The notes: generated from the letters alone by a model not told the origin. A stretch of 64,000 bases of DNA from an uncultured Piscirickettsiaceae bacterium (GCA_964344325.1 CAYFMX010000001.1:202233-266232), one strand, 5' to 3'. Numbered from the stretch's first letter, positions 19,147-53,615 are shown. Numbers and translations: made by a program.

Positions 19147-19536
19147 ATGAAAATCTCAGCACCAATTTCCATTGGAGAATTAATGGATAAAATAACGATT
19201 CTTGAGATCAAACTAGAACAATTCCAGGAACGATCCAAACTGGAAAATGTAAACAAAGAGATGACTGCGCTCAAGGAAAAACTATTCAAGAAGAATGTGG
19301 ATATTGAACAAATTGAAGAAGAAGTACATAAACTCAAACAGATCAATATTCAATTGTGGGAAATTGAAGATGCAATTCGTCTAAAGGAATCAAAAAAAGA
19401 ATTTGATGAAGAATTTATTGAATTAGCACGCTCTGTCTATTTCACAAATGATGAACGTGCGGAAGTAAAAAAAGAAATCAACTTAAAACTTGATTCTGAG
19501 TTAGTAGAGGAAAAATCCTACGCAGACTACGCATAA
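19147..19536 (+). CDS. hypothetical coiled-coil protein
   Basis: 129 aa, highly charged (E/K-rich) with heptad character, no recognisable catalytic motif; wedged between two GT9 genes. Confidence 0.4.
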   Translation: MKISAPISIGELMDKITILEIKLEQFQERSKLENVNKEMTALKEKLFKKNVDIEQIEEEVHKLKQINIQLWEIEDAIRLKESKKEFDEEFIELARSVYFTNDERAEVKKEINLKLDSELVEEKSYADYA

Positions 19537-19548
19537 ACTCAAATCAAT

Positions 19549-20592: not shown

Positions 20593-21380
20593 GAATTTTC
20601 GTTCTTATCACGATCATTCCAACGCACCCATAGTGCCGCATATTTTGCAAAGACAGAATGCGCAGAAAGCAACGCTAATAATAAGCCTTGTTTTCCGTCC
20701 AAAAAACCTAATTTCAGAATATACATCCGAAAAAAATACCAACTCCCGTGTGAGATAGCTTGTAATAGTGATGCTTTTTTCCCTTTTTGGAACCGCTGTT
20801 CCGACCACTCTGCGGCATATTTTGCAGATTTTTCTAAATAGTGTTGTAAATCCCGATAAGTATAGTGGAGCAAATCCCCTTTTAATCGCTTGATCTGAAT
20901 ATTTTCTTTCAGGAAATAGAGCTTTTCGTGGACCCGTTCATCGCCATATTTCGCGGCATAGCAAGAATAAAACCGTATTTTAGGCGCAGGATACCACCCA
21001 CTGTGTCGGATAAAACAACCAAATACCCAAGGAAGAATATCAATTTTATATACGATATTTTGGTTGTTTTCTGAAACAATTTTTTCAATGGATTGACGAA
21101 GTTCAGGAGTGACGCGCTCATCTGCGTCAATCATTAAAATCCAATCATTTGAAGCGTAAGATTGCGCCCGTTGACGCTGTATTCCAAAACCTTTCCAGTC
21201 CGTATTTTGAAAAATTTTATCTGTGAATTCCGATGCAATCTCTAATGTACGATCTGTACTACCATTATCTAAAATAACAATTTCATCTACCCATTGCACA
21301 GATTCTAATGAAGATCGTATAGAACCTTCCTCATTTTTTACAATCAAAACAACAGATAATTTACTTTGACTGTATTTCAC
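20589..21380 (-). CDS. GT2 family glycosyltransferase (LPS core, WaaE/KdtX-like)
   Basis: 263 aa, LSVVLIVKNEE...ILDNGSTD motif and DAD (DxD). Confidence 0.7.
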   Translation of the reverse strand: MKYSQSKLSVVLIVKNEEGSIRSSLESVQWVDEIVILDNGSTDRTLEIASEFTDKIFQNTDWKGFGIQRQRAQSYASNDWILMIDADERVTPELRQSIEKIVSENNQNIVYKIDILPWVFGCFIRHSGWYPAPKIRFYSCYAAKYGDERVHEKLYFLKENIQIKRLKGDLLHYTYRDLQHYLEKSAKYAAEWSEQRFQKGKKASLLQAISHGSWYFFRMYILKLGFLDGKQGLLLALLSAHSVFAKYAALWVRWNDRDKNENS

Positions 21381-22605
21381 GTTTTCTCGACATCATCGTT
21401 GCAATTGGAATCAATAAAAAAAGTAGAAAAACTCCCGGTGGCGATGAACGTGATAACCAATTTTGACTTAAACCAAATACTGCAAAAGAGACCAATGCCA
21501 TCATACCTATCATAATCCAAACATGATCTTGCTCTTCTGTATCCTGATTTATTTTTCTCCAAAGATAGAAAAAAGGAATTCCAAAAACACCTATCATGAT
21601 ACTTAGAAAACCTAATATGCCGGTTGTTGCTAAGAATTCTATGTATAAGTTATGCGCTTCTCCATAATTAGATATTTGTGCGTAACGTATATTATATTCT
21701 GCTAGTATTTTTTTATCTATATAATAGTCACCTAAGCCAGTACCAATCCACGGATTATCTTTCCAAATCTCAATTGCTGCTTCGGACATTAAAAGTCTTT
21801 GACCTACAGAACCTTCAATTTTTCCTTCCAGATAATTGGAAGATTCAACTTGTGCCTGATCCCAACGGTTTTTTACAGAATCCGGAAAAGCAAATATCAT
21901 TATTGTCAATGTTGTAAAAAATGTGAATAACAATATTATTGTATTTTTTCTCCACATTTTAAATTTCAATATACCCCAAATCATCAATAAAACTGCTGGG
22001 GGTAATGCAATCCATGCGCCACGCGTTCCTGAATAAAATGCCGCTGCAATTGCAAACAGTGAGGAAATTAAAGCCAATCCTCGGAACCAAAAAGTTTGTT
22101 GAGAAAAAAGAGCAACTGCTAGAGCCGAAAGCCCTATCACCATTGCGTAATCTCCATATAAAATAGAATTATACGATCCAACAGCAGTCTTTCCTGTACT
22201 CCATAAAAGATAAAATAAAATAGGCCCTGCTAGTAATATACCAATAGAAAAAAATCGACCTATTTGACCGCCAACTTTCCGTAGCATCAAATATGCTGGA
22301 ATCACAAACAAGAAACGCGCAACCCTTTCAAAACGTTTCATACTATTATGCATATCATCTACATTAATATAGCTGATGATTGATGCAATACATATCCCTA
22401 AAAAACCTAATAACAGCCATTTTTCCCATGAATCTAAATATTTCCATTCTGACCATGAAAAAAACAGGCCAAACAATGCAATTAATAAAACTGCTCCACT
22501 ACCTATACCTTTTACTATTGTCATCGCGACTGGAAAAATAACCACCAAACTAAACAGTATTATTTTTAAAAACTGCATACTATTTTTTTCGAACAGATAA
22601 TTCAC
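21361..22605 (-). CDS. O-antigen ligase family membrane protein (WaaL-like)
   Basis: 414 aa, about 10-12 TM helices, periplasmic loop with conserved Arg/His (GTRGAWIA...H), within the core-LPS cluster. Confidence 0.65.
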   Translation of the reverse strand: MNYLFEKNSMQFLKIILFSLVVIFPVAMTIVKGIGSGAVLLIALFGLFFSWSEWKYLDSWEKWLLLGFLGICIASIISYINVDDMHNSMKRFERVARFLFVIPAYLMLRKVGGQIGRFFSIGILLAGPILFYLLWSTGKTAVGSYNSILYGDYAMVIGLSALAVALFSQQTFWFRGLALISSLFAIAAAFYSGTRGAWIALPPAVLLMIWGILKFKMWRKNTIILLFTFFTTLTIMIFAFPDSVKNRWDQAQVESSNYLEGKIEGSVGQRLLMSEAAIEIWKDNPWIGTGLGDYYIDKKILAEYNIRYAQISNYGEAHNLYIEFLATTGILGFLSIMIGVFGIPFFYLWRKINQDTEEQDHVWIMIGMMALVSFAVFGLSQNWLSRSSPPGVFLLFLLIPIATMMSRKREIQSK

Positions 22606-23690
22606 TCTAAAATCTCTAAATACTCTTGAACTTCTCTTTCTTTCCTAAATAATTTTCTTGCTAGACCAATGTTTTCTATAGACTTTTCTTTTTCATACTT
22701 TATTTTAGAACAGACATCATAAAGAGTCTTATGTAACTCTATTTCATTTCTATTTTCCACAGCATGCCCATAAAAACCAAGGGAAAATATTTCTGGAATT
22801 GTAGTATTATCATAAGCAATGCAAACTAATCCACATCCTAATGATTCTGCTAAAACATTACCAAAGCCTTCACCGGAAGTTGGATATAAAAATACATCAT
22901 AATCTTGTAATTTACTAATAATATTCTCCACATGACCTAAAAATTTTATTCTATCTTTATAGTTAGTTAAAAGAGAAGTGTTTTTTAATTCTCGAAGATA
23001 TTCTTCTTCATCAAAATTTCCAATCAAATATAAATTGAATGGAATATTGTTTTCATAAAGTATCTGACATGCTTGAATAGCATCATCCTGTCCTTTACCT
23101 CTTGCAATTCTACCAACATGAACAACTTTAATTATCTTGTTAGTCTTTTCATGAGAAATTTCTGTTTTTTCTGAATATTGAAAAGAAGGATAAATTAATT
23201 TTATTTTCGAACTAGAGGAAATAGGAAATATATTGCGCACATTCCTTTTTAAATGATTGCTAATCACCACATGCCAATTAACACAGCTATACATCCATGT
23301 ATGAAACCAATCTTTCTTGCTATGCGACATAGTTGTGCCATGTCGAATGATGACATTCACACCTTTACCAATCAATCCAAAATAAATAGATTTTATTTCT
23401 GAAGTTCCAAAAAATATTATATTTTTTATATTTTCTGTAAAAACAAGGTCTCTTATAAAAAAAATCAATCTAAAACTAAAGTGTGACCGAAAATCACACG
23501 ACTTTACGCTAATTAAAGAAGAAATTTTTTTATCTTTTAGAATACGTTCTCTTATGTAGCTTTTATTTTTACATCCGACATATAACTTTCCGTATGGACT
23601 TAATTTTTCTGCCAAACGAACTGAATCAATCTCCATTCCTCCTTTTCCCATAGAAAAACAAAGGATTGCGGTATTGCCTATCTTATCCAT
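22602..23690 (-). CDS. GT4 family glycosyltransferase
   Basis: 362 aa, C-terminal EGFGNVLAESLGCGLVCIA motif of GT-B GT4 enzymes. Confidence 0.75.
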   Translation of the reverse strand: MDKIGNTAILCFSMGKGGMEIDSVRLAEKLSPYGKLYVGCKNKSYIRERILKDKKISSLISVKSCDFRSHFSFRLIFFIRDLVFTENIKNIIFFGTSEIKSIYFGLIGKGVNVIIRHGTTMSHSKKDWFHTWMYSCVNWHVVISNHLKRNVRNIFPISSSSKIKLIYPSFQYSEKTEISHEKTNKIIKVVHVGRIARGKGQDDAIQACQILYENNIPFNLYLIGNFDEEEYLRELKNTSLLTNYKDRIKFLGHVENIISKLQDYDVFLYPTSGEGFGNVLAESLGCGLVCIAYDNTTIPEIFSLGFYGHAVENRNEIELHKTLYDVCSKIKYEKEKSIENIGLARKLFRKEREVQEYLEILE

Positions 23691-23697
23691 TTTCTAT

Positions 23698-24720
23698 TCA
23701 TATAACATGAGAAGGAGAAATATTATTTAAACATTTCAAATGCTTAAAATAGCATTTTCGATCAAAACAAGGACTACATTCCAAACCCAAATAATATACC
23801 TTTTTTCTCCCCGTTAACGGCGGTGTATATTCTGGCGTAGAAGAACCATAAATCGCAATCACCTCCGTCCCCACTGCCGCTGCAACATGCATCAATCCGG
23901 AATCATTGGTAATCACTTTTTCGCACGCAGAAAGCAAATCAACCGCATCTTCAATGCGCGTCTTTCCACACAAATTAATCAGTGTTCGTTGTGAAATCTC
24001 AAAAATTTTTTCTCCAGCTTGGAAATCTTTTTTTGATCCTAAAATGATGACCTGATTCCCTTGATCAAACAATTTCTGACCCACTTCTGCAAAATACTCT
24101 AATGGCCACTGTTTTGCTGGACCATATTCTGCCCCCGGCAATAGTGCAATAATCTTCTTTTCTGAATAATCAAGATGATACTCTTTCTTTAAATTTTCTC
24201 TATTTTGCAAATCAATTTGTAGTTTTAGGAAAGGTACATTTACCTCTTTTTCAATTTCTTCTATGGTTTCTTTATCTGGAGCCAACGCCACATAGCGTTG
24301 CACGGTCTGTTTTAGACGGATTTTGTCCAATTCACGAATATCATTCAATAATCCATAACGCATTTCACCGCGATACCCCGTGCGTTGTGGAATCTTGGCA
24401 AAAAATGGAACCAATGCCGACTTCCAAGAACGCGGAATCACAATCGAACGATCATATTTTTCTGCACGTAATTTTTTTCCTAACTGCCGACACGCTTGTA
24501 ATCCTAATTTTCCATGTGGAACATCCAACGCAATCGCATTGGTCACTTCAGGCATCCGCTGAACAACGGGTAATGACCACGTCGGCGCAACGACATCAAT
24601 TTGCAGGTCTTCTAGAGTTCTATTTTTCTCTTTTTCTTGCTGTTGCAAAGTGATGCAGAGGCTTTGCATCATCACCATATCTCCAATCCAAGAAGGCCCA
24701 ACAATCAGGATTTTTTTCAT
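23698..24720 (-). CDS. waaF: ADP-heptose:LPS heptosyltransferase II WaaF
   Basis: 340 aa, long collinear similarity to E. coli RfaF (KILIVGPSWIGDMVM, GEMRYGLLND, LLPGAEYGPAK, VITNDSGLMHVAAA). Confidence 0.85.
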   Translation of the reverse strand: MKKILIVGPSWIGDMVMMQSLCITLQQQEKEKNRTLEDLQIDVVAPTWSLPVVQRMPEVTNAIALDVPHGKLGLQACRQLGKKLRAEKYDRSIVIPRSWKSALVPFFAKIPQRTGYRGEMRYGLLNDIRELDKIRLKQTVQRYVALAPDKETIEEIEKEVNVPFLKLQIDLQNRENLKKEYHLDYSEKKIIALLPGAEYGPAKQWPLEYFAEVGQKLFDQGNQVIILGSKKDFQAGEKIFEISQRTLINLCGKTRIEDAVDLLSACEKVITNDSGLMHVAAAVGTEVIAIYGSSTPEYTPPLTGRKKVYYLGLECSPCFDRKCYFKHLKCLNNISPSHVI

Positions 24721-24827
24721 GGTGAATCAGTAGGAACTCAAAAAATCATTTCAGAAAAAACGAAAGAGAAAAAACCAAAGAAAATTGATATAGAAGTTAC
24801 ACGAAAATATAGAGACAGAATGTAAAA

Positions 24828-25793
24828 TCAAGCGTTTAAAATGTCCAGATAATTCTGAACCCCTGCATTCACATCCAGAAATTCTTTCGCATAGCCCACG
24901 TTACGTAACGCAGACATATCTGCTTCTGTGAAACTCTGGTATGCGCCCTTCAAATGATCTGGAAACGGAATGTATTCAATTCTTCCATTCTGTCCCTGCG
25001 CTTGATGCCATGCAACCACTGCATTTGCCATGTCGTTGAAGGATTGTGATTTTCCGGTTCCCAAATTGAAAATCCCGGATTTTTCCGGATGACCCAAAAA
25101 CCAAAGGTTCACATCAACCGCGTCCCCAACGTAGACAAAATCGCGCCGCTGCTCGCCATCTCCATATCCATCACAACCTGCAAACAATTTCGCAACCCCA
25201 TTGTCCAAAATCTGGTTGTTAAAGTGAAACGCTGTGCTCGACATCGTTCCTTTATGCTGCTCCCGCGGCCCATAAACATTGAAATAGCGGAAACCAACTA
25301 CCTGGCTGTTCTGCGCTGCAATTTCCGGCTGCAGTCGACGTACATACTGATCAAACTGAAATTTGGAATAGGCGTACATATTGATCGGCTTTTCGTGCTG
25401 CCGATCTTCCTTGAATACCGCGCCGCTACCATATACCGACGCAGAAGAAGCATACAAATACTGCGCCTTGTTCCTCAGACACCAATGGAGCAACGATTTG
25501 GAATATTCGTAGTTGTTTTCCATGATGAACAACCCATCCCACTCTGTTGTCGCGGAACACGCGCCCTCATGGAAAATCGCCTGTACATTCCCGCCAAATT
25601 TTTCACCCATTTCAACCCGTTCGATGAAATCGTGACGATCCATATAGTCAGCAATATCCAGATCGGAAAGATTGACCATCTTCCGACCATTTTTCAGGTT
25701 ATCGACCACCAAAATGTCGCGCTCGCCGCGCTCGTTCAACGCTTTGACAATATTGCTACCGATAAATCCGGCTCCGCCTGTCACAATAATCAT
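24828..25793 (-). CDS. hldD: ADP-L-glycero-D-manno-heptose-6-epimerase HldD
   Basis: [14 protein letters not shown] Rossmann start, SDR-type epimerase; start taken at the internal Met rather than the MSRCCCK extension. Confidence 0.85.
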
Positions 25794-25809
25794 TTTTTTT
25801 ATCTTTTCC

Positions 25810-28800
25810 TTACAACAGCACCTGCTCAATGCCGTCGTCTGCTTTGATTTTTTTCAGGAATTTCTGCTGCCACTTTTCACCATGCAGGCGACGCGCCAAC
25901 TCCACCACCACATAATCAACACCTAATCCGGTTGACTCTTCATAACGCATCAGCCCTTGCTGGCAAGAAGGGCAACTAGTAAGAATTTTCACCTTGTCGC
26001 GTAAACCAACTTGCTCTTTCCCAATCAATGATTGGATACCTGTCTTTAATTCACGTTCTTTGCGAAATTTCACCTGCGTTGCAATATCAGGGCGGCTGAC
26101 CGCAAATGTTCCTGATTCGCCGCAACAACGGTCTGACAGCAACACGTCCTGCCCCATCAACGTGGAAACGGTTCGGACTGCATTCGTCGCCTTCATTGGC
26201 GTATGGCACGGATCGTGATACAGGTAATTTCCTGCATTATTTTTCTTACCAGCATCATCAGTTTCGAGCGTAACACCCTTCGCACGCAAATATTCGTGAA
26301 TATCCATCAATTTGCAATCGGGGAAAATCTGCTGGAATTCGTATTGCATCAACTGATCCATACAAGTTCCGCAAGAGACCAGCACCGTGCGAATATCCAG
26401 ATAATTCAGCGTATTGGCAATTCGGTGAAACAGTACCCGGTTGCCCATCGAAATTTGATGGCCTTGTTTCTCCTGCCCGGCTGCGCGTTGCGGGTAACCA
26501 CAGCAGAGATAACCCGGCGGCAAAATCGTCTGCACATCCAGCGCATAGAGCATGTTCAAAACTGCCAGCTCGACTTGCCCAAACAAACGCTCCGCGCCAC
26601 AACCCGGGAAAAAGAAAACTGCTTCCGAATCATCGGTTGTCGTTTTTGGATTGCGCAAGATCGGCACATAGCGTGGATCTTCCAAGCCCAGAATCGCACG
26701 TGGCATTTTGCCGCCGATCTTCTCGCCCGGCATCGGATGGCGTAGAAAATGAACCAACTGTTCCTGCAATTTCGGTGGTTCAGTCGTCGCCGTCGGACGC
26801 GGACGGGCGCGAAATTTCAGCAACGAACGCGTCCATTGATGCGCCAACCGCTGCATCCGATAACTAAACTGCACCAACCCCATCCGCATCAGCCGGATTG
26901 ACCCCGGATTGGTCGCATTCAAAAACCGCATCGACATCCAGTGTGCCGGACTTGATTTGCGCTTACCAAGCTTCTTCAGTACGGTGCGCATCTGCATCGT
27001 CACCTTGCCGAAATCAATATTGACCGGACATTTCGCCTCGCATCGGTGGCAAATTGTGCAATGGTCAGCGATATTGTTCATCTCGGTAAAATGGCGGAAT
27101 GAAATCCCCCGGCGCGTTTGTTCTTCGTAGAGTACTGCTTCAATCATCAAACCGGTTGCCAAGATTTTGTTACGCGGTGAATAGAGCAGATTCGCCGCAG
27201 GGACATGTGTCGTACAGACCGGCTTACACTTGCCGCAACGCAGACAATCCTTGATCGACTGGTTCATGTTGCGGAGATCGTTCGCCTCCAGAATCAACGC
27301 CTCTTGCTGAACAAGCTGCAATGATGGCGTATAGGCATTTTCCAGACCGGAATCGCGCATCAATTTGCCGCGATTGAAGTGGCCTTTCGGATCAACCGCT
27401 TGTTTATACTGCGCAAACGCGTCAATTTCCGCATCATCCAGATAACCGATTTTGGTCAATCCGATCCCGTGCTCACCGGAAATGACCCCGCCGAGTGAAC
27501 AGGCCAACTCCATGATCCGGTCAACAACCCGCTCTGCCTCCTGCAACATTCCGTAATCATTGGAGTGCACCGGAATGTTGGTGTGGACGTTGCCATCCCC
27601 GGCGTGCATGTGCGTCGCGACAAACAACCGCCGCGCTTTGACACTGCTGTGAAATTCATTGATTTTATGGCGAATTTCTTCCAGATTTCGCCCGGAAAAG
27701 AGTTCGCGTAACGGTTTTTCAATCTCCTCTTTCCAGGAGACGCGCAACTCTCGTCGTTGCAAGATTTGAAACAGCGTATCTGCGCCCGGATCAAAATCAA
27801 GCAGATGCTGGTGACGTGAAGCAGGCTCGTCCATCTTCTCCAGAAAGAGTGACCAGCGCGTTTGCACCTGTTTGAGATGGTCGGCTGCAAGCTGTTCTTT
27901 ATCCACAACAATTTTGTGGTATTCCTCGCCCTCTTCCGCTTCCAGACGCTCGCTAATCTGGCGCAACTGTTTGGAGAGGAACCCCAGCAATTGATCAATC
28001 CCGTCCAGTTTGTTCTGGATCGATTGCTCAATGTTGATGCGCTCAATTCCTTCCGCGTAATCGGCCAGACGTTCCAGCGGAATCACCACATCTTCGTTGA
28101 TTTTGAACGCATTGGTGTGTGCAGCAATCGCTGCAGTACGTGCCCGCTCTGCCCAGAATTTGCGCCGTGATTCCGGACTTTCTGCAATAAACCCTTCGCC
28201 ATCCCGTGACTGCGCAATCGCGACAACCGCTTTTGCCGCTTCGGACACGTTCTCTTCGTTTTCGCCACCAATATCAGCCAACAATACCATCCGCGGCAAA
28301 GTTGGGCGTGCCGCTTTGGTGGTGTATTTGACTGCCTTGATATAGCGTTCGTCGAGATGCTCCAGACCGATCAACGCCACACCATCCGTCTGTTTCAGTA
28401 GGTCAATCGTCTCGACAATCGCTGGAACCGCATGATGCAAATCCGAGCCAAAAAACTCCAGACAAACCGTCTGCAACACGCTGGATTGGCGATGCAGCAT
28501 AAAACGTGCAGAAGTGATTAAGCCATCACAACCCTCTTTTTGCGCTCCGGGTAATCCTTCCAGAAATTTTCGGGTCACATCCTTACCAAGACCGGGACGG
28601 CGCATTTTCTCGGTTGGGATTTTCAGGACATTGGGTTTGCCCTTGAACTGTTTTCCATCTCGCTCCAATGGCTGGACGCGAAATTCTGCATAGGGCGCAT
28701 CATGGAGTTTGCCGCGATTGTGGTTGAGCCGTTCAATCAGAATCCACTCTGCATCCGGCGTCACCATCTTCCAAGAAATCAGGTTATCAAGCGCCGTTCC

Positions 28801-29670
28801 CCAGCGCACCGCCTTTTTCCCGCCGGCATTCATCGCGATATTGCCGCCGATGGTCGAGGCGTTTTGCGAGGTAGGATCAACCGCAAAAGCCAACCCAGAT
28901 GACTCTGCTACATCGGTCACACGCTGGGTAACGACACCGGCTTCCGCACGAATACTCGCTACCCCACCGCCGCCACCGGGCAGATTGATACGCTCAATCT
29001 CGCTAATTTTTTCCAACCGTTCCAGATTGATGACAGCGGTATCCGCTTCCAGCGGCACTGCACTACCGGTATAACCCGTGCCGCCACCACGCGGGATCAT
29101 CGTCAAACCTAGCTCAATGCAAGCCTCGACAATGCCGCGTACTTCCTGTTCTGTATCGGGCGTAATGACGATAAATGGAAACTCGACGCGCCAATCCGAT
29201 GCATCCGTTGCATGAGAGACGCGTGCCAATCCATCAAAATGAATATTGTCTTTCGCAGTGACACGCGCCAGTTTGCGGAAGGTACGCTGGCGAAGTGGGG
29301 CTTGGCGGTTCAACCACTGTTCAAATTGGTCGACTGCATTTTCTGCGCTCTCCACTAATGCAAGTGTAAGCTGGTTGTTGTTGGCACGTTCCAGCACTTG
29401 CTGTAACCGAAAACGCAATGCATGAACCAACGACTGGCGGCGTTTCGCATTACCGATCAGATCATCCTGAATATAGGGGTTGCGGCGAATAACCCACATA
29501 TCGCCCAACGCTTCAAACATCATCCGCGCAGAACGCCCAGTTTTCCGCTGTCCGCGCAGTTGACTCAGAATCTCCCATGCCTCCTCACCCAGAAAACGGA
29601 TGACGATTTCACGGTCAGAAAACGAGGTGTAGTTATAGGGGATTTCGCGGATTCGGGGTGAAGATGACAT
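25810..29670 (-). CDS. DUF3683-FAD-binding oxidase fused to Fe-S (ferredoxin / CCG) oxidoreductase, YdiJ/GlcD-GlcF-like
   Basis: 1286 aa; FAD PCMH-type region, two CxxCxxCxxxCP 4Fe-4S motifs ([23 protein letters not shown]), C-terminal cysteine-rich CCG domains. Confidence 0.7.
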
Positions 29671-44454: not shown

Positions 44455-44550
44455 CTATTTTTTATTCGCGTGCCTTACTGATTCCCAAACTACAATTCCC
44501 ATACCAATCAGAAAAATTGCCGTGATTAAAACAACCATCAAAAACTTCAT
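44455..44550 (-). CDS. 31-aa single-TM peptide (translationally coupled to the upstream ORF)
   Basis: Manual translation MKFLMVVLITAIFLIGMGIVVWESVRHANKK; its ATG overlaps the TAA of the 85-aa ORF (TAATG). Confidence 0.35.
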   Translation of the reverse strand: MKFLMVVLITAIFLIGMGIVVWESVRHANKK

Positions 44551-44807
44551 TACAACTCCTCCAATTGATCAATTTTCTTGTAAGCAAAATGGTTGATTCC
44601 TACGATGGACAACGTCACCAAAAAAGAAATACCGCCAATCAGAAACAGAAGCTTCCATGTAATTTGCTCCCAATTTTGAAACAACCAACCAATCAACGAC
44701 ACATCTATCGCAACCAGCAAGATATATGTCGCTTTCAACCAGCCAATCTCCTCTTTGATTTTCTCTGATCTCGACACGCTTTTCTCCATAAACTTCAAAA
44801 TCAGCAT
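44550..44807 (-). CDS. 85-aa two-TM small membrane protein
   Basis: ORF with two hydrophobic helices and a charged N-terminus; AT-rich accessory context. Confidence 0.4.
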   Translation of the reverse strand: MLILKFMEKSVSRSEKIKEEIGWLKATYILLVAIDVSLIGWLFQNWEQITWKLLFLIGGISFLVTLSIVGINHFAYKKIDQLEEL

Positions 44808-44881
44808 TGTACCTCAAACGTAAAAGAGCAAGCCCGCAGACCTGCCCTTCAATGGTAAATTTCGCAATCAATCACCAAATA

Positions 44882-45472
44882 TCAGAGCACTACAATCACC
44901 TGATTGCTCGGCAATGAACTGCCCACACTATTTTGCGCCACAACCTGATAGGCGACCTCTTCCCGTACTGGCTGATCCTGCAAGATGATTTCGCGGTCAA
45001 TCGCAACCTCTTCCGATCTCCCATCACGCACAATTCGGTAGTGAACCACTTTTCCACCATCGTTTGGCTCTTTCCAGCGCAGTGCAACCACGCCGGATAA
45101 AATCCGCTCTGCGGTCAATGTTCTGGGCTGTCCGGGAACCTTCGGCGCAGCACGCAAGTTGCGTCCGCCCCAACCGATCAAATTCAACTTAATATCATCA
45201 TTGCCGACCGTATTTTCTGCATAATTGATCGCGCTTCGCGCCATTGCTGCCAACTGCTCCAGATCGCCATTCTTTTTGGCAACCATCGCCTTTGCCAAGG
45301 CCTGCTGTGCAATCGTAGTCTCACGGGATGCATCAAATTCTGCAATGAGATCTTCAATTTCTTCCGGCGTGTTGGGCGGGGAAGGATACAAATCCACATT
45401 GTTCCGCAGCCCTTCTGCAAGGGAAGCAGCCAGTGCCCGTATTTCCAGCTCTTTTTTCGGGAAAACCGCCAT
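44882..45472 (-). CDS. hypothetical protein with C-terminal fibronectin type III-like domain
   Basis: 196 aa; helical N-half, C-terminal beta-rich FN3-like segment (PGQPRTLTAERILSGVVALRWKEP...). Confidence 0.45.
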   Translation of the reverse strand: MAVFPKKELEIRALAASLAEGLRNNVDLYPSPPNTPEEIEDLIAEFDASRETTIAQQALAKAMVAKKNGDLEQLAAMARSAINYAENTVGNDDIKLNLIGWGGRNLRAAPKVPGQPRTLTAERILSGVVALRWKEPNDGGKVVHYRIVRDGRSEEVAIDREIILQDQPVREEVAYQVVAQNSVGSSLPSNQVIVVL

Positions 45473-45693: not shown

Positions 45694-46773
45694 CTAAGGT
45701 ACTGCATTATGGCTGCATGGACGACATCGAGGACCTAACTCAACTCCCTGATATTTATATACTATCTCTTTTGCTTTAGTAACAACATCTCTCAACATTC
45801 CTTCATCGGGCGGACATCGACTACGAAGAGGAGTTGCTGGATCAGGACGAAATGGACTAAGAACTGGATCACAACCCCTTTCAGCCAAAGCTCTAATACC
45901 TTCCAGAGTCGATTCAATGCTTTCTAGTCCGACAAGTAGAGATGAACGAACACGCCCTACACCAAAAACTTCCACTGCCTGCTCAATAAATTCAAGATAG
46001 CACTCCCTAGATAATCCATACTTACGAGGAGTTATCTTTCTGGCTATTTGCTCATCAAAAACTTCAATATTTATTGATAAACCATAAATTCCTATGCGTT
46101 TAAGAAAATTTAAGTCAAGTAAGTCAGGATAAGGAACCATCATCACATCAATTTCAAGGTCAGGATAATAATTGCAGGTTGTCTCATAAACTTGTTGTAG
46201 ATACGAATAGTCTTCAACTTTAGGTGTTCCACCTGAGATCAACACATGACGTGGTGACAATTGTGGATCTTCTATCGCGACTCGGAGCGCATCCATCATT
46301 CGATCAATTGGATTTAGACGATATTTAGATGTGTAAGGTAAATCACAAAACGTACAGGTAATTGCGCATCCGTCCACCGGAGAGATACGCGCCCTATCTG
46401 CGTGTGTGTTTACATACTGAGTAAATGGCTCGCCCCATTGATTCAGTTTCCCATGATACGCAGGAACAGGAATTGGTGAAGCCATAATATTAGTATTAGG
46501 CCCAACCACGAAAAAACTACCACTGTTTGTCACAAGTTGATAAATTGGTTTTGTAACAAAGTTGTAATTATAATCGATGAAAGGTGTATTGACCCACACT
46601 TCTTGATTACGCATTGGATCAAATAGCTTTAGTGTAATTCCGTTTGTAGTAGCATAGTCTCCAGTAGTTAATTGATCAGTTCCCCAAATTTTGAAAAGCT
46701 CTGTGCGTGCATCTTGAGTAATCTCAATCCCTTTCGAATACAACGATAGTTTTAGAAATTCAATATTATTCAT
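45694..46773 (-). CDS. radical SAM enzyme
   Basis: 359 aa, CxxxCxxC cluster (CAITCTFC) after an N-terminal domain of about 130 aa, glycine-rich SAM-binding segment (ISGGTP); start overlaps the stop of the upstream NTPase gene. Confidence 0.75.
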   Translation of the reverse strand: MNNIEFLKLSLYSKGIEITQDARTELFKIWGTDQLTTGDYATTNGITLKLFDPMRNQEVWVNTPFIDYNYNFVTKPIYQLVTNSGSFFVVGPNTNIMASPIPVPAYHGKLNQWGEPFTQYVNTHADRARISPVDGCAITCTFCDLPYTSKYRLNPIDRMMDALRVAIEDPQLSPRHVLISGGTPKVEDYSYLQQVYETTCNYYPDLEIDVMMVPYPDLLDLNFLKRIGIYGLSINIEVFDEQIARKITPRKYGLSRECYLEFIEQAVEVFGVGRVRSSLLVGLESIESTLEGIRALAERGCDPVLSPFRPDPATPLRSRCPPDEGMLRDVVTKAKEIVYKYQGVELGPRCRPCSHNAVP

Positions 46774-48917
46774 TATTGTTCAGATTTAGTTTGCGAACCA
46801 CACGATATAATTTGATGCGCACTTGCATTAAGTAGTTTGGCACTACTTTGATCCCACATGCAATATTCAAACTTCGTTTCTTTGTTTGCAGAAATCACGC
46901 AACCATCAATGCTAACCAGTTGCTCCAAGCGAGCAAGCTGCACAGTAATATTATTAGACTTACCAAATGCAATAGCTGCTTTATCACTCTTATCGTGCTT
47001 CTGCTTAACCAACTCAGTAGGTCGTCCAACTTCTGAATCATAGTAAAAACTAACCTGGCATAATGTGGTTTCACCATCAAATGTTACATTTTCAAATCGA
47101 CAGCCCCTGAAATCAACTTGAGACTTTTCTTTAGCAATATCTATAAAGTCTGAGTCTTTGAATACACAGCACCAAAAAAGAACCCCTTGAAGATCGACAT
47201 TTCTAAATGTGCAATTGTCAAAGCTGATCCCTTTAAATATTGTTCCTTTGAAAGTCCATCCTGAAAAATCTATACCTGAAAACTCTGATAAATTCTGAAG
47301 TGATTTGAGATCTACATTTCCAATATCCGTAATGAAGGAACAACCCTGATAGAATTTAGCAGGTTGGAAATATGAGCTACTTAAATCTACTGACCCGCTC
47401 TGAAGCATAACATCTACTCCTACATTTTCTACAGGAGATGAGATACTATCTTCGAGCGTACCAAATATCTTTGACGCCCAATTACTTAATGCTGAACCTA
47501 AAAGATCATGAACTAGTTCAACACGCTTTCCTAAGCTATCTTCGCTATTATCATTATATGTCTTAAGAATATTCGCATTCTTAAGCACAGAAATGGTGTC
47601 ATTAAAATAAGATTCGATAGCCGATTGAGCATCTTCGTATATACCATATTTATTCATTAACTTCCGAGTATTGATCTCTTCATTTTCTATTAGCTTGTCG
47701 AGTAACTCCTTAGTGCGTATGGAAATCTTATAGTCACCAGCTGAAAGAAACGACGATATGCGTGCTGCTATCCAGCGAATATAGCCAACTCTACAAGACA
47801 TTTCAGTGTGATCACTATCACTGTTAAAGTCATTCAGCGACATTGTGATCCAACGTTCAAGTGCTTCAGAATAGACGAAAAGATAATCCTCTTCTTCCTG
47901 AGAATCTATGATGACTGATTGTTCATACCCCAATAGGTCTTCAATTAATACTCTTTTTTTCCCCTGTTTTTTAAGATACGAGAAAAACTCATAAGAAACA
48001 ACTTGTAAGGTGAGTAAGTTATTACTTCTGAAATCTAGTTTTTCTTCTATTCCTTTTTTCACCATAGAACAGTTCAGAATCAAACGATCTCTTGTATCTC
48101 TATCTAAGAATATATCTTCGCTCTCAAATGATTTTTCAATAATTAAGCCAACCTGCTTTGTGACACCATTCTGATCCGTAGAAGGTATAGCCTTGAGGAA
48201 ATATGCTCTGCGCATGATACTTCCTACCTCATGATCAAGGAAACGAAGTGCATGTAAATACTCTTCACGCAGAGAGATAAGAATACGAACTTGTTTGTTT
48301 AAATAATATAAATCCTTGATTAATTCTATTATTTCATTGCTTTCTTGCAACCTAGACCTAAATAGCTCCTCTAATTGGTCAAAAATTAATATTACTCCAC
48401 CATATTGCCTAACCAGTGACATAACGCTGGCGACAAACAGTTCGTTCTGGGCTCTGCTCCTAGCTTCATCTATCAATTGAGCTTTCTCCAGTATTCCACT
48501 TGCGATTTGGTAATCATTATGGTTCTTGAAGTCGGCTTCTTCCGGTGTTTTTTCAGGGTTAAGTCGTTCTATTGCTTCTGCCAAACTCATCCAGAGGTAT
48601 GTACGTAAATCAGCACTATTTGCGACTCCACCCCAGTCTCGAAATACAAGCACAGGGAAGGGATAGATAATTTTTTCAGAAGAATTTTCCAGAGATGCAT
48701 TTCGACGTTTTCCGAGTTCAGGTATTAAGCCAGCTCTCAGAAGCGATGTTTTACCAGCAGCACTTTCACCTGCTAAAACGTTAAGCTGCCAAAGCACCAT
48801 ATTCTGTATAAGTTCACCAATTTCTTTCTCACGGCCAAAAAAACGGGAATGGTGTCTCTCCTCATATGGAGTAGCACCCACAAATGGATTTGTACTTAGA
48901 TCGTTAATTGTATTCAT
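46773..48917 (-). CDS. STAND-type NTPase with C-terminal pentapeptide repeats
   Basis: 714 aa; FFGREKE-x-Walker A (GESAAGKTSLLRAGL), Walker B ILIFDQLEELF, large helical middle region, C-terminal pentapeptide-repeat beta-helix (DFSGWTFKGTIFKGISFDNCTFRNVDLQGVLF...). Confidence 0.7.
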   Translation of the reverse strand: MNTINDLSTNPFVGATPYEERHHSRFFGREKEIGELIQNMVLWQLNVLAGESAAGKTSLLRAGLIPELGKRRNASLENSSEKIIYPFPVLVFRDWGGVANSADLRTYLWMSLAEAIERLNPEKTPEEADFKNHNDYQIASGILEKAQLIDEARSRAQNELFVASVMSLVRQYGGVILIFDQLEELFRSRLQESNEIIELIKDLYYLNKQVRILISLREEYLHALRFLDHEVGSIMRRAYFLKAIPSTDQNGVTKQVGLIIEKSFESEDIFLDRDTRDRLILNCSMVKKGIEEKLDFRSNNLLTLQVVSYEFFSYLKKQGKKRVLIEDLLGYEQSVIIDSQEEEDYLFVYSEALERWITMSLNDFNSDSDHTEMSCRVGYIRWIAARISSFLSAGDYKISIRTKELLDKLIENEEINTRKLMNKYGIYEDAQSAIESYFNDTISVLKNANILKTYNDNSEDSLGKRVELVHDLLGSALSNWASKIFGTLEDSISSPVENVGVDVMLQSGSVDLSSSYFQPAKFYQGCSFITDIGNVDLKSLQNLSEFSGIDFSGWTFKGTIFKGISFDNCTFRNVDLQGVLFWCCVFKDSDFIDIAKEKSQVDFRGCRFENVTFDGETTLCQVSFYYDSEVGRPTELVKQKHDKSDKAAIAFGKSNNITVQLARLEQLVSIDGCVISANKETKFEYCMWDQSSAKLLNASAHQIISCGSQTKSEQ

Positions 48918-48962
48918 TTTATTAAAACCTGTGCAAACTAGAACAGTACTATATACACGATG

Positions 48963-50897
48963 TTAACGGCGTGTGAGATAAGATAGCGATCTGAAAAACA
49001 TATATAAATCGTCAGTTAGTGCAGGTTTAATATTGAGATTCTCACAATAAGCATGCTTTACCTCATCTTTAGACTGCATCACAGCGTATCGATGCCCATT
49101 TCTTTTATCATTCTGGCCTAGTGAAGGAGTCTCATTCTTACCTGTAGCCACTTGAAAATACAATTGTGAGCGTATATTCCAATCAGAAAGAGAATAGCCT
49201 AAAAACCAAAGACCGAATCTAGATCGTACAGTTTGTAGTGCAGCAAGAGGCATTTCGCGGCTAGTAGCTTCTGAAAGAACTTGGACATACCCACTTTCAG
49301 TGATGAGTGTCATATGGTTCCACCTAACTGAAGAAAATGGGCTCTGCTGCGGAATCTGTTCAGAAATGGAAGCAATATCAACGCTCGGTGCACCGTGTAA
49401 TTTCAATATAATTGGTCCTGGAATAGATTTATCATTGAGAATATTTTTTAAGCAATGACTCTGTGATTGTCCGCCTGACTGTGTATCACTATTTTCCGAC
49501 CGATCTTTACATATAATACTTGGTTCTAAACGGTGCACGCTATTTATTATAGTCTGTCGTACCCACGCAGTTTCTATCCCAGATGCACTATCTTGACTAC
49601 TATATTGACTAGAAGTGGAAATTTTTCCATCTAAATCTTGTGCCTTAGAAGAACTATCACCATCAAAGTGTATTTCCCGGTAAACTGGAAATAAAATATG
49701 AATAGCCCCCCATGGGGGATTTTCTACATTCATAAGAGCTATCTCAAGTGACTCATCATAGTTTGTTGTAAATAATAATGGAGGAATTTTTGGCTCGCAT
49801 GGATTATCCTTAATGCGTCGCTCGTTAGCTTGATACATCGCTTTTGTAACAGAAGCCAACGATTTATAGCCTGAACTTACAGGGAACAAATCTTTGGTTA
49901 TCCGGTGACAGTATGATATCCAGTTATCTATAACTTCAGAAACATGCTGTGGAAACATCTCTTGTTCACCATCCACGACAGCTAATGCCTCGGCAACCTG
50001 AGATAGTTCACCAACCACTCTGATTGGCTTTCCAGTTTTACGAAGAGTAAGTCGTAATGTTAATTCACGAGACGATGGTAGCAATGGATCGTCGAATCTG
50101 AACAAATGCCACAGAAAAGAAAATAACCATTGAATTTCATCGCCGAGAAAACTTAATTGCGAATCAGAGTATGCTCGCTTATTAACCGAATCAAATATTT
50201 CGACATGCTCGGGCGAAAAAAGATCAATCTCACCTCTTACTATTTTTGAAGCAAGATCTCTTAAAGCAGTTTCTATGCTTTCTGGGCACAATAAGAAGCA
50301 AATTTCGACATTTGTATCTTTTAAGAACTTCCTTATCTTAGTTGCATTCGATAGGCAATCATTTAATATCGAAACAGCTTCTCCTATACTTCGTTCGGGA
50401 ATAAGCAGTCTTGTATTAGGAAGCCAAGCAGTTAACGTGTTGCTATTTCTCGTTTGATCAGCAGCAACAGTATCTAAATAAACTAAGAATTTAAGAATAT
50501 TTTTTTGTAGTTGTATTAGTAACACTTCAAGTGGGCTTTCATCGAAAGCAATAGCCTCTGAACTATTAGCCCAGTTAGTATAAATCCCACACCAAGATAC
50601 CGTTTCTCTTCTTGCTTCAGAAAGGTAATTGATATCGGCAATGATATCGAGCAAGTGCTTTTCACTATCAGATGCAGAATATGATTTCAATCTGCCAAAT
50701 CGATATGCGCTAAGAGCTCCAGGTGCAGCCCGTAACATTTCGAAATCTTTATTATCAGATGATAATAGATTACTTATTACTTCAGGATCACGAAATGCTG
50801 AAACACCCGCACCTATGAAAGGAACAAAGCGCCCTGCTTCAACATCACGTCCTAAAAAACTGATCCATTCCTCCGTTTGCACTTTTGACACTCCCAT
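48963..50897 (-). CDS. SIR2-family (DHS-like NAD-binding) protein with large inserted middle region
   Basis: 644 aa; N-terminal FVPFIGAGVS (GAGxS) and C-terminal LWFLGYSLSDWNIR (GYSxxD) are the two hallmark motifs of the SIR2_2 family. Confidence 0.55.
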   Translation of the reverse strand: MGVSKVQTEEWISFLGRDVEAGRFVPFIGAGVSAFRDPEVISNLLSSDNKDFEMLRAAPGALSAYRFGRLKSYSASDSEKHLLDIIADINYLSEARRETVSWCGIYTNWANSSEAIAFDESPLEVLLIQLQKNILKFLVYLDTVAADQTRNSNTLTAWLPNTRLLIPERSIGEAVSILNDCLSNATKIRKFLKDTNVEICFLLCPESIETALRDLASKIVRGEIDLFSPEHVEIFDSVNKRAYSDSQLSFLGDEIQWLFSFLWHLFRFDDPLLPSSRELTLRLTLRKTGKPIRVVGELSQVAEALAVVDGEQEMFPQHVSEVIDNWISYCHRITKDLFPVSSGYKSLASVTKAMYQANERRIKDNPCEPKIPPLLFTTNYDESLEIALMNVENPPWGAIHILFPVYREIHFDGDSSSKAQDLDGKISTSSQYSSQDSASGIETAWVRQTIINSVHRLEPSIICKDRSENSDTQSGGQSQSHCLKNILNDKSIPGPIILKLHGAPSVDIASISEQIPQQSPFSSVRWNHMTLITESGYVQVLSEATSREMPLAALQTVRSRFGLWFLGYSLSDWNIRSQLYFQVATGKNETPSLGQNDKRNGHRYAVMQSKDEVKHAYCENLNIKPALTDDLYMFFRSLSYLTRR

Positions 50898-50913
50898 TGA
50901 ATTGGTATTTTAT

Positions 50914-52290
50914 TTAGAAAATAGATTTTATTTTTTGTATTTTATCTTGATATTCAAGAGTCAATTTACCATCAAGCTTGCTGACACTTTCATTCGTTTG
51001 AAAACGACATATTATTGCATTTGGATCCACTTTAATTCCAGATGGAGGTAGTACAGACAAAATACCATTAAATTCTCGTCCAACCTCTAGATTAATCTTT
51101 GGCTCAACCGGATTTTTCTCAAGATTACGAATCACTACATGACTCATCTCAGGCTGTTCTTCAACTAATTGACAAACATGCCTATCAGGAGGTGGACATA
51201 ACCCTAGATAAGCAGAAATATGTTCAATATACAAATCAGGCTGCCCGATTTGTTGATCAAGCAATGCTGCGACTGATGAAGAACCTTGAAAACGTGGATT
51301 AACCTCAACTAAATAGAGCTTATTTTCATAGATTAATGCATCAATACCGAATGCGCCTATATACCTTTCCTTATATAACCAATTGCCTACAAATCGCCCG
51401 AGTAAATCCAGTTCTCCTAAAAGTTCTGGCTCAATTCTTTTTATCAATCCAAAATCATTGCCACAATAGGAAAACGGATTTCTCGTAAGTGCAGGATCAC
51501 CTACAATTTGTATCGAAGGCCCATGGAGACGTACTTCCGATGTATTTGATGACTGCCCAGAAAATACACACCCATTTATACTTATAGGTATACTATCATG
51601 AATATATGGAGCAACCGAGCAGTATCCATCTCTATTATTTTCCAGTTTATCCCATATTTTATTTAAGCCATTTTCATTTTCTACTAGAAAAAGACCATTA
51701 CCACCGGTAGATCTATTTAACCTAACTACTAAAGAACCATTATTCAGCATCTCTTCAAGCATAGGTCTCGAAGAATCTGTTATTAGAAAATATTTCCAAT
51801 CAATAAAATTGATAGGAACTTGAATCTTATCTCGTTCTTTTTTTAACTCCGTCTCAACCCAAACTTTATGCTCAAATGCATTCTGACGTTCTTGAAAAAG
51901 ACCGGCGAATTGCGCATGATTTTCTCTTGGAAAAATTACTGAAGTTAAAACATTATATGGTCGATACGGAACAAGCACACAGCGTTGATCGACAGCTTTC
52001 GAAAGTAACTGCCATAATTCACAAACAGCTTTTTTTTCTACACTGTTAGAAGGCTTATCATCGACAGAATATGCATCAAGGTCAACTCTCCGCCCTGTTA
52101 ATGTCTCTAAGCATTGTCCTCCGATTCCAGGCCAATCATTAAGAGGCGAAATAATCGAAAACACATCTCCGAATTGCGGCAATTCCATCAGAGGCTTAGC
52201 ATCGCAACCTCGGGTGCCAAACCAAATGATCCGTTGCCCTTCAAGGGCAGACGAAAGAGTTTGGAGATAGTTGTGCCTAACATGCTCCAC
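50914..52290 (-). CDS. ATP-grasp family ligase
   Basis: 458 aa; glycine-rich loop GGNGLFLV, C-terminal LYLVEVNPRFQGSS (ATP-grasp E-x-N-x-R Mg-binding motif). Confidence 0.6.
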   Translation of the reverse strand: MEHVRHNYLQTLSSALEGQRIIWFGTRGCDAKPLMELPQFGDVFSIISPLNDWPGIGGQCLETLTGRRVDLDAYSVDDKPSNSVEKKAVCELWQLLSKAVDQRCVLVPYRPYNVLTSVIFPRENHAQFAGLFQERQNAFEHKVWVETELKKERDKIQVPINFIDWKYFLITDSSRPMLEEMLNNGSLVVRLNRSTGGNGLFLVENENGLNKIWDKLENNRDGYCSVAPYIHDSIPISINGCVFSGQSSNTSEVRLHGPSIQIVGDPALTRNPFSYCGNDFGLIKRIEPELLGELDLLGRFVGNWLYKERYIGAFGIDALIYENKLYLVEVNPRFQGSSSVAALLDQQIGQPDLYIEHISAYLGLCPPPDRHVCQLVEEQPEMSHVVIRNLEKNPVEPKINLEVGREFNGILSVLPPSGIKVDPNAIICRFQTNESVSKLDGKLTLEYQDKIQKIKSIF

Positions 52291-52385
52291 AGTAGTATTT
52301 ACCCCTTTAATATCTAAAATCTGTTAGTCTTTGATAAAGCTATTTCACGCACGATTCTTAAAAAAACCCAAGGAATCTAATGTAA

Positions 52386-53615
52386 ATGAACAACCCCAAA
52401 CAACTAGGCCCACATCCCACGGGGGGATGGATTTCAGAAGATGAAGCACTTATTTTTGAATTCCATAAAAAATTACCTGAATGGCTACTAGATATAACAC
52501 CACCTTGCTTTATTTATGACCTCGAAAAATTTCGAGAAGAAATCAAAACCATATTAGATACATTCCCACAGTACCGTTACCCATTGAAGTGTAATCCTCA
52601 TCCATCATTACTCGCTACTGTGTTGTCATTAGGTGCAGGGGTAGATGTTTGTTCTGTTGGAGAATTAGAAAAAGCCTTGATGGAAGATGCACCCGGTCAC
52701 TTAATTAATTACTGTAGCGTTTCTTATACTACTGCGCTCATCGACCATTTAGTGAGTATAGAAGCAACTGTCACACTAAACAACCTTGATGATCTACAAT
52801 TGATGTTAGCACGCCATCCTGCTCAGACACCAAGTTTACGTATAGAAGCAATTGATCCAAATACTCCTTATGGCGACAAATTCGGTTTTTCGATGAACCA
52901 ATGGAGCCATGTTGAGAAAATTTTGAATCAATATCAGACTTACTTGAGTGGTTTGCATATTCACACTTCTCATTCTCCTGATATAAACCAACTTACTCAA
53001 CGTTTATCCCCATTACTAGTAGCATTAGAAAGGTTAAAAGATTGGGTTCCAAAAATGCATTTTCTCAATCTAGGTGGAGGATGGCCTATGCTTTATGGTG
53101 CCCAGTTTCATTCTGTAACTGCGAAAGATTTTGAAAAAATTTTAGAAAAAGACTTCCTACCGAAAGCCAAGAAACTCGGCTTTAAGGGCGAAGTGTTAGT
53201 TGAACCTGGGGAATATGTAACTTCATCTATGGGATACTGGGTGGCTGAAGTCACTGGGGTTAAAAAAAACGAAATAAATTTACCAATAGTCTTCGCAAAT
53301 ACTCCAGGAGTAGTTCCATCAGCAGAGATTGCATATCCAACAGCATTATTTCGAAAATGCAAAGCTGGCTGGGAAAGAGTCCAAAATGAATTAGTCACTG
53401 TCAAAATTGTTGCAGCAACAAATTCCCCATTCGATACGATTCGCCCTACAGTAATGCTACCAATGCCTCAAGCTGGTGATCGGCTGGTATTTGGACAAAC
53501 TGGAGCATATCTACCTTGTTTGATGGGAACCTTTAATAGTATTCCGGCTCCCCACACATACATTGTCCACAAAAATACCTCTTCTCCTATTTCCCACCCC
53601 CGATCCTACACTTGA
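52386..53615 (+). CDS. fold-type III PLP-dependent decarboxylase (Orn/DAP/Arg decarboxylase family)
   Basis: 409 aa; YPLKCNPHP (PLP-lysine K-C-N motif), GAGVDVCSVGELE, C-terminal beta-sandwich with the GAY motif; divergent from the ATP-grasp gene. Confidence 0.7.
   Translation: MNNPKQLGPHPTGGWISEDEALIFEFHKKLPEWLLDITPPCFIYDLEKFREEIKTILDTFPQYRYPLKCNPHPSLLATVLSLGAGVDVCSVGELEKALMEDAPGHLINYCSVSYTTALIDHLVSIEATVTLNNLDDLQLMLARHPAQTPSLRIEAIDPNTPYGDKFGFSMNQWSHVEKILNQYQTYLSGLHIHTSHSPDINQLTQRLSPLLVALERLKDWVPKMHFLNLGGGWPMLYGAQFHSVTAKDFEKILEKDFLPKAKKLGFKGEVLVEPGEYVTSSMGYWVAEVTGVKKNEINLPIVFANTPGVVPSAEIAYPTALFRKCKAGWERVQNELVTVKIVAATNSPFDTIRPTVMLPMPQAGDRLVFGQTGAYLPCLMGTFNSIPAPHTYIVHKNTSSPISHPRSYT

Follow-up and report, generated by a model that had tools for sequence, protein, structure and literature searches.

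Among the genes carried by an uncultured Piscirickettsiaceae bacterium is a cassette of five that places a STAND NTPase and a SIR2-like protein beside a radical SAM enzyme and an ATP-grasp enzyme. It was found in a 64,000-nt stretch of one contig (GCA_964344325.1 CAYFMX010000001.1:202233-266232), here called the window, and occupies positions 45694-53615 as counted from the first nucleotide of that stretch. Four of the genes lie on the minus strand in the order ATP-grasp, SIR2, STAND, radical SAM, and the fifth, encoding a pyridoxal phosphate (PLP)-dependent decarboxylase, diverges from them on the plus strand. Gaps of 16, 45 and -1 nt separate the four minus-strand genes, which therefore form one operon. 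All five genes have a GC content of 0.37-0.40, against 0.54 for the flanking mgtE and rsfS, and the cassette is horizontally acquired. The catalytic motifs of all five encoded enzymes are intact.

The central component is a 714-aa protein (46773-48917, minus strand) made up of an nSTAND1 NTPase, a helical/winged-helix arm and C-terminal pentapeptide repeats, referred to below as STAND-PPR. An earlier note on this DNA had proposed both a STAND NTPase and a pentapeptide-repeat terminus that could act as a sensor, and both hold up, the sensor role as a plausible one. The P-loop NTPase domain (aa 11-243; 48189-48887) is a bona fide nSTAND1, matching PF20703 at 82.1 bits (E 7.8e-23; gathering cut-off 27.1). 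It carries a GREKE motif, a Walker A motif GESAAGKTS (aa 50-58; 48744-48770) and a Walker B motif LIFDQLEEL (D180, E183 and E184; 48366-48392), and residues S52, G55, K56, S58, D180, Q181, E183 and E184 are kept in at least 85% of 21 STAND homologues. The window protein has no N-terminal effector domain of its own. In the helical arm, a conserved H470-D471 pair is reminiscent of the MHD motif of NLR proteins, an equivalence that is unproven.

The pentapeptide-repeat region (aa ~521-625; 47043-47357), presumably a β-helix and a putative sensor, contains about 20 readable five-residue units. Between aa 544 and 581 it matches PF13576 at 38.0 bits (E 1.9e-9; cut-off 27) and, at 29.6 bits (E 5.1e-7; cut-off 20.2), also PF00805, the family against which the earlier note had staked its claim. 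Residues F551, G558, F561, F571, C574 and G578 are conserved among homologues, and the core block of the repeats is as well conserved as the NTPase (identity 0.31 vs 0.31-0.39). STAND-PPR forms a small family: a search of 1.84 billion representatives (E<=1e-10) gave 184 clusters at 50% identity.

The gene directly upstream (48963-50897, minus strand) encodes a 644-aa SIR2-like protein with a large conserved helical insert. It matches PF13289 (SIR2_2) at 45.8 bits (E 8.4e-12; cut-off 24.5), and is a sirtuin of this defence type, with the motifs G29-AGVS, T377-TNYD381 and K499-LHG502 intact. Among proteins of solved structure, the anti-phage NADase KomC is the nearest to it, with an E value of 2e-14 for a match confined to profile positions 478-571. 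The protein is a putative NADase effector.

The radical SAM enzyme (45694-46773, minus strand; 359 aa) has a complete TIM-barrel core between an N-terminal domain that is specific to its family and a C-terminal GPRCxPCxHN tail. Its place in the radical SAM superfamily is supported by score, by the TIM-barrel core and by the CX3CX2C [4Fe-4S] motif (C136/C140/C143; 46345-46368), which is invariant in 27 homologues; the match to PF04055 begins at aa 130. The N-terminal domain (46399-46773) had caught the earlier note's attention as an extension of about 130 aa, and we confirm it at ~125 aa ahead of the canonical cluster, predicted to fold as two helices and five strands. It is conserved throughout the family, has no conserved cysteine and matched no known domain. 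At the other end, the GPRCxPCxHN motif is invariant and C301 nearly so, and together these residues could serve an auxiliary cluster.

A search for relatives of the enzyme returned 939 matches, and most of the best 120 are ~50% identical over the full length, N-terminal domain included; a scan of viral contigs in IMG/VR found none, a result that is neutral for the interpretation given below. The NCBIfam model NF045502 (variant_rSAM) is passed by a narrow margin (126.9 bits, cut-off 125) over model positions 6-357 of 357, a span that takes in the N-terminal domain, but its annotation reads 'radical SAM protein' and names no further function. TIGR04043, the MSMEG_0568 family, matches partially (70 bits vs 303.7). 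The earlier note had also set the enzyme apart from viperin and anSME layouts, and rightly so: no viperin is its closest structural neighbour and no viperin-specific family matches it, nor does it belong with the anSME/SPASM-twitch enzymes as judged by their C-terminal auxiliary-cluster domain.

Two further enzymes complete the cassette. The ATP-grasp enzyme (50914-52290, minus strand; 458 aa, PF02655) is PurK/PylC-like and is a near-universal partner of the radical SAM enzyme; the models of both fall into small-molecule fold classes, not into those of RiPPs (peptides that ribosomes synthesise and that are modified post-translationally). The decarboxylase (52386-53615, plus strand; 409 aa) is a fold-III PLP-dependent enzyme of the ornithine/diaminopimelate/arginine type (PF02784, E 9e-23), which scores 111.7 bits against the TIGR01048 lysA model, below its cut-off of 297.9.

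Two repeatedly linked modules

A scan for the radical SAM enzyme with one genome per species yielded 56 loci, all from metagenome-assembled genomes (MAGs), in Acidobacteriota, Patescibacteria, DPANN archaea, Actinomycetota, Chloroflexota, Desulfobacterota, Gemmatimonadota, Gammaproteobacteria and Rhodospirillales. Open reading frames were called and clustered in 59 non-redundant loci, and 70 related loci (numbered L002 and so on) were considered in all. Two modules recur in these 70: a metabolic one, module A, consisting of the radical SAM and ATP-grasp enzymes with interchangeable enzymes that tailor amino acids, and a switch, module B, consisting of the SIR2-like protein and STAND-PPR. The same cassette as in the window is found at 37-60% identity in L002 and L003-6, and the decarboxylase is kept beside it in L002, L003 and L073. 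More distant versions with other gene orders occur in Thermoanaerobaculia, an archaeon, Syntrophales, Magnetococcus, Actinomycetota, Chloroflexota and the cultured Fundidesulfovibrio agrisoli (L068).

Within module A, a large ATP-grasp enzyme accompanies the radical SAM gene in 44 of 58 loci, and the cluster of ~445-aa ATP-grasp proteins, which takes in carbamoyltransferases by way of a fusion protein, is represented in 51 of the 59. STAND-PPR is present in 21 of the 59. When only radical SAM loci flanked by 6 kb or more on each side are counted, 12 of 26 have the STAND gene, and 16 of 26 have either it or a protein in which pentapeptide repeats are joined to a TIR domain. The STAND association is scattered across the radical SAM tree. 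Seen from the other side, eight of nine STAND-PPR homologues that were looked up share their cluster with radical SAM and ATP-grasp genes. In the ninth, L007, SIR2 and STAND are paired with a KAP-NTPase/FGE protein and there is no module A.

The order of the genes varies. The window, L002, L003 and L021 share the order ATP-grasp, SIR2, STAND, radical SAM. In L009, L011 and L071 the radical SAM gene comes first, followed in some by an aspartate-carbamoyltransferase (ATCase)-like gene, then ATP-grasp, SIR2 and STAND, while L013, L030, L032, L068 and L069 run radical SAM, ATCase-like, TIR/SIR2, STAND and an inverted ATP-grasp gene. All told, at least four gene orders and at least eight phylum-level lineages show the linkage, often with module B lying between module-A genes. 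The two modules are repeatedly and specifically linked, and each is also able to stand alone.

That each module exists without the other is what one would expect if a SIR2-STAND defence pair had merely landed beside an unrelated radical SAM/ATP-grasp operon on one mobile island, and defence genes do often cluster with unrelated cargo. Such a chance juxtaposition would have to be repeated across all of those lineages and gene orders, with module B so often inside module A, and STAND-PPR would have to turn up in nearly half of the fully flanked radical SAM loci despite belonging to a family of so few clusters. We consider this explanation highly improbable.

A different proposal concerns the two genes on which the earlier note had concentrated. 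The open reading frames of STAND-PPR and the radical SAM enzyme are confirmed on the minus strand, and their junction reads GAA CAA TAA TG A AAT, the TAA stop (46775-46773) and the ATG start (46773-46771) having one base in common. The TAATG overlap described earlier (46771-46775) is therefore present as claimed, and it implies co-translation of the two genes in the window. The note had gone on to suggest a fixed stoichiometry, which would fit a STAND-PPR that directly regulates, or senses for, the radical SAM enzyme, and a 4-nt overlap in L002 and the co-occurrence of the two genes in many genomes speak for such a pair. That said, L003 has a 20-nt gap at the same junction, and the radical SAM gene adjoins the STAND gene only in the window clade and in L021; elsewhere two to four genes intervene or the radical SAM gene is on the opposite strand. 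Since the overlap is not conserved and the genes lie apart in most loci, fixed stoichiometry is not a property of the family. The junctions that are conserved and tight are those from SIR2 to STAND, and a stoichiometric STAND/radical SAM pair seems to us quite unlikely. What survives of the earlier claim is the recurrence of the two genes together in other genomes and a real functional linkage between them; adjacency beyond the window clade and L021 does not, and the real unit is the five-gene cassette, which that note had missed.

Pentapeptide repeats also reach the radical SAM gene by the second route mentioned above. In six Acidobacteriota loci (L017, L024, L028, L030, L032 and L052) the TIR-containing protein is encoded beside it, in four of them without a STAND gene and in L030 and L032 together with one. 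The protein, ~350 aa long, begins with pentapeptide repeats (E 1e-24) and ends in a TIR domain (E 2e-17), and its gene is upstream of and divergent from that of the radical SAM enzyme, often with an ISAZ013-type transposase adjoining.

Exchangeable effectors and tailoring enzymes

The partner of STAND-PPR is nearly constant in position and variable in composition. Among the 59 clustered loci, a SIR2-like gene is directly upstream of the STAND gene in 20 of the 21 that have one, with junctions of -26 to +45 nt; examples are a 6-nt gap in L007 and overlaps of 8 nt in L068, 26 nt in L069 and 4 nt in L071 and L073. Members of the window clade have intact GAGxS, TTNYD and KLHG motifs. In other lineages the GAG loop is degenerate, and the catalytic His is replaced in many by N, R, S or F. 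A TIR domain is fused N-terminally to the SIR2-like protein in L030, L031, L032, L038, L068 and twice in L069, where two tandem paralogues of this kind occupy L069:11056-15467. The GAG loop is degenerate in all of these, and the His is lost in L030, L038, L068 and both L069 copies and kept in L031 and L032. In L072:4146-6455 a CHAT domain is fused N-terminally to the SIR2-like scaffold, in L060 a separate Pycsar-type TIR protein follows STAND, and in L073:2105-11256 the whole SIR2-STAND pair is tandemly duplicated around the decarboxylase gene. The SIR2-like partner thus amounts to a natural experiment in effector exchange, in which catalytic decay often goes with a TIR or CHAT fusion. Such exchange of effectors on a constant NTPase is a hallmark of STAND immune or conflict systems (PMC8195603). 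It is also known from Avs.

Some degenerate SIR2-like partners (L013:12084-14711, L066:12756-15473 and L023:13202-15712) carry a ~300-aa N-terminal extension with an RNx3-4H motif, recognised by eye, that recalls HEPN RNases. A HEPN domain was considered for this extension and rejected, as it found no Pfam support even at E<=10.

Neighbours of the conflict type appear in several loci. Directly downstream of the radical SAM gene in L021 (L021:11144-13831), which has the gene order of the window, lie an HNH_2 endonuclease and an ADP-ribosylglycohydrolase, the latter fitting the ADP-ribose chemistry expected around SIR2. L071 has an integrase fragment and LSDAT/8xMP genes, and L068 a stand-alone TIR protein and RelA/SpoT.

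Module A is diversified in its own way, through companions that replace one another from locus to locus. They include an ATCase-like enzyme (210 bits vs a cut-off of 237), which is sometimes fused to ATP-grasp (P0319), a BluB/FbiB-like nitroreductase, a second, RaSEA-like radical SAM enzyme (174 bits vs a cut-off of 212), a NadE-like PP-loop enzyme (amidotransferase), an FAD monooxygenase, a methyltransferase and the PLP decarboxylase. A five-enzyme version from the reduced genome of a Woesearchaeota MAG (L070:9001-14235) has the radical SAM enzyme, the ATCase-like enzyme, the RaSEA-like enzyme, the nitroreductase and ATP-grasp without STAND, and is surrounded by genes for the exosome, the proteasome, enolase and ribosomal proteins. 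Because radical SAM and ATP-grasp enzymes occur here together with tailoring enzymes directed at amines and carboxylates, we infer that the product of module A is a small metabolite derived from an amino acid and variably decorated.

Other kinds of product were considered. The 375 small intergenic open reading frames near the cassettes include no family shared across loci, as a RiPP precursor would be, and with no conserved small frame and with enzymes of small-molecule fold classes the cassette is not a RiPP biosynthetic cluster. A resemblance to the sinefungin pathway, which also has radical SAM and ATP-grasp-like enzymes, was set aside because SinC is a B12-dependent radical SAM enzyme and the pathway is a different one. 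The cassette's radical SAM and ATP-grasp enzymes were also compared with PylB and PylC of pyrrolysine biosynthesis, and with LipA/BioB/HydE/ThiH-type radical SAM enzymes and PurK-type ATP-grasps. Sequence identity is only 12-16%, neither NCBIfam model matches and there is no PylD, and unlike PylB the window enzyme has its extra N-terminal domain and CxxCxH tail; it does not belong to that pathway.

Surroundings in the window

The repeats at the boundaries of the island are short and at chance level, and there is no tRNA nearby. Rfam (E<=1, 44.0-54.5 kb) found neither a riboswitch nor any other RNA, and promoter and terminator scans of the window gave counts equal to those of shuffled sequence. 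Downstream of the radical SAM gene is a small hydrophobic, probably membrane, protein of 85 aa (44550-44807, minus strand), an uncertain member of the island that has an island-like GC content of 0.39, against ~0.54 in the flanks. It matched no family. In the same interval (44550-45472) is a 196-aa protein with a weak fn3 match (E 1.4e-3) and a host-like GC content of 0.52. Neither protein was seen beside the cassette in the related loci examined.

A second block of low GC (0.33-0.39), at 18024-25829, is an ordinary lipopolysaccharide-core/O-antigen cluster with three family-9 heptosyltransferases, glycosyltransferases of families GT2 and GT4, a Wzy_C O-antigen ligase and an NAD-dependent epimerase. 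It is followed at 25810-29670 by a gene for a 1286-aa protein with DUF3683, FAD-linked oxidase, 4Fe-4S dicluster, CCG and DUF3400 domains, which looks like a fused enzyme of the glycolate/lactate-oxidase type and is unrelated to the cassette.

Possible roles of the cassette

Several known systems bear on what the cassette might do. Avs/AVAST, for example the SIR2-STAND fusion Avs5, and the nSTAND1 conflict systems (PMC8195603) likewise have a STAND NTPase with a C-terminal repeat sensor, and likewise swap an NAD-targeting, TIR or caspase-like effector between lineages. The window differs from Avs in that its effector is a separate upstream protein on a SIR2-like scaffold, its sensor is made of pentapeptide repeats, and the switch is embedded in a radical SAM/ATP-grasp operon; the Avs, Thoeris and DSR models of PADLOC went unmatched. 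The paper that names nSTAND1 (PMC8195603) makes no mention of radical SAM or ATP-grasp enzymes.

Kongming (KomABC) offers a second parallel, as dITP made by its enzymes switches on a SIR2 NADase complex (PMC13454610; 10.1101/2024.12.20.629578). Its KomC is the closest solved relative noted above, a likeness limited to the C-terminal half of SIR2. The cassette has no homologues of the KomA deaminase or the KomB pyrophosphatase and is not a Kongming system; the signal-making enzymes here would be radical SAM and ATP-grasp, with the STAND NTPase interposed. The prokaryotic viperins, Ophion (10.1101/2025.09.30.679545) and HXS (PMC13128918) resemble the cassette in having a radical SAM enzyme in a putative anti-invader cluster, possibly as the maker of an antiviral small molecule. 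Identity with Ophion or HXS was rejected, as the partners differ and no specific homology was found.

The repeats themselves belong to the same right-handed pentapeptide β-helix fold family as Qnr, MfpA, McbG, AlbG and HalA. HalA, the effector of Hailong, binds an oligonucleotide signal according to the title of PDB entry 9nyi. The window repeats score 27 bits against HalA (cut-off 250) and 16 bits against Qnr (cut-off 240), and NCBIfam models of Qnr and MfpA give 14.5-17.5 bits against cut-offs of 240-490, so they are not a topoisomerase protector of the Qnr/MfpA/McbG type. Those protectors are free dimers of ~200 aa, whereas the window repeats form the C-terminal arm of a 714-aa STAND protein, neither a free dimer nor a channel. 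Full-text searches found no paper describing a STAND/SIR2/radical SAM/ATP-grasp cassette, and as far as searched the joining of a STAND/NADase switch to a radical SAM metabolic module has not been described before.

The interpretation we prefer, at a probability of roughly 55%, is that the cassette is a conflict or abortive-infection system, gated by NTP and with NADase activity as its output, and tied to an amino-acid-derived molecule made by the radical SAM enzyme, which on the best reading would be either the ligand that is sensed or a second effector. Module A would provide a radical SAM enzyme and an ATP-grasp ligase or carboxylase as its core, together with enzymes that act on an amino-acid-like molecule at its amine or carboxylate. 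In module B, an effector-less nSTAND1 protein with a pentapeptide-repeat sensor would have the SIR2-like protein as its docked effector or adaptor. Binding of a cue by the pentapeptide region would lead STAND to exchange nucleotide and oligomerise, and the SIR2 partner, once activated, would consume NAD+ or ADP-ribosylate a target, ending in cell arrest or death by abortive infection.

A product or intermediate of module A is favoured as the cue, because the pentapeptide repeats are tied to the cassette, whether in STAND-PPR or in the TIR-containing protein, and are as conserved as the NTPase. Such conservation is unlike that of sensors that track variable invader proteins. Metabolite-gated immunity, comparable to the activation of KomBC by dITP (PMC13454610), is thus the favoured form of this proposal, and a module A that would act as a parallel, viperin-like chemical effector arm is a close alternative. 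In its most explicit form, a constitutive or infection-induced metabolite would be read directly by the repeats, and its appearance or disappearance would trigger the SIR2, TIR or CHAT effector; at that level of detail we think the proposal less likely than not.

Several observations weigh against a conflict system. Module A occurs without the switch in most loci from the candidate phyla radiation (CPR, Patescibacteria) and DPANN archaea, and must there have a function independent of it. The island in the window lies between housekeeping genes and not in a recognisable defence island, and PADLOC-DB v2.0.0 gave nothing useful for seven island proteins, the sole match being STAND to LeoA at 12.6 bits. 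In several Actinomycetota loci the SIR2 His is lost and there is no obvious substitute effector. Moreover, the STAND gene of L009 is followed, after a 3-nt gap and within one operon, by genes for a Liv-type ABC amino-acid importer with a Peripla_BP_6 binding protein, two permeases and two ATPases (L009:12236-16775). Such an importer is also found in L013, L030, L031, L032, L035 and L069; in the 59 loci it accompanies 6 of the 21 with STAND and 1 of the 38 without, and it looks metabolic.

The stand-alone module A, the Liv-type importer and the lack of useful PADLOC matches can also be read as signs of a secondary-metabolite or cofactor gene cluster with no immune function, in which the SIR2-like protein and STAND-PPR would belong to the pathway, whether by regulating it, as a scaffold, in an ADP-ribosylating tailoring step or for self-resistance like McbG or AlbG. 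Module A is universal in the set and sits at times among housekeeping genes, its complement of tailoring enzymes changes in the manner of natural-product clusters, and pentapeptide proteins serve as self-immunity factors in antibiotic gene clusters. What fills the slot upstream of STAND, however, is a SIR2, TIR or CHAT domain, a kind of effector typical of cell suicide or immunity and hard to reconcile with tailoring or self-resistance. The repeats are fused to STAND or TIR instead of forming a free Qnr/McbG-type dimer, and the SIR2-STAND pair of L007 travels with its KAP-NTPase/FGE protein and without module A. A purely biosynthetic cluster is an account we take seriously and still think unlikely.

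It is recognised that prokaryotes use STAND NTPases with NAD-destroying effectors for immunity, and that radical SAM enzymes, the viperins among them, make antiviral small molecules. The present cassette, joining components of both kinds, spans Pseudomonadota, Acidobacteriota, Actinomycetota, Chloroflexota, Desulfobacterota and archaea. Where the enzyme module stands alone, in CPR and DPANN genomes that hold very few genes for biosynthesis, it represents a pathway yet to be characterised. Should its metabolite turn out to be an effector, the family would be a candidate source of new antiviral or antimicrobial compounds, diversified by swappable tailoring enzymes. If the metabolite is instead a signal or a guarded quantity, immune small-molecule signalling would not be confined to nucleotide-derived messengers and would also draw on radical chemistry performed on amino-acid-like scaffolds; and if the pentapeptide repeats read it, it would be an immune second messenger (or guarded metabolite) of a new chemical class in bacteria and archaea, and a first ligand would be assigned to the pentapeptide-repeat sensor of a STAND protein.

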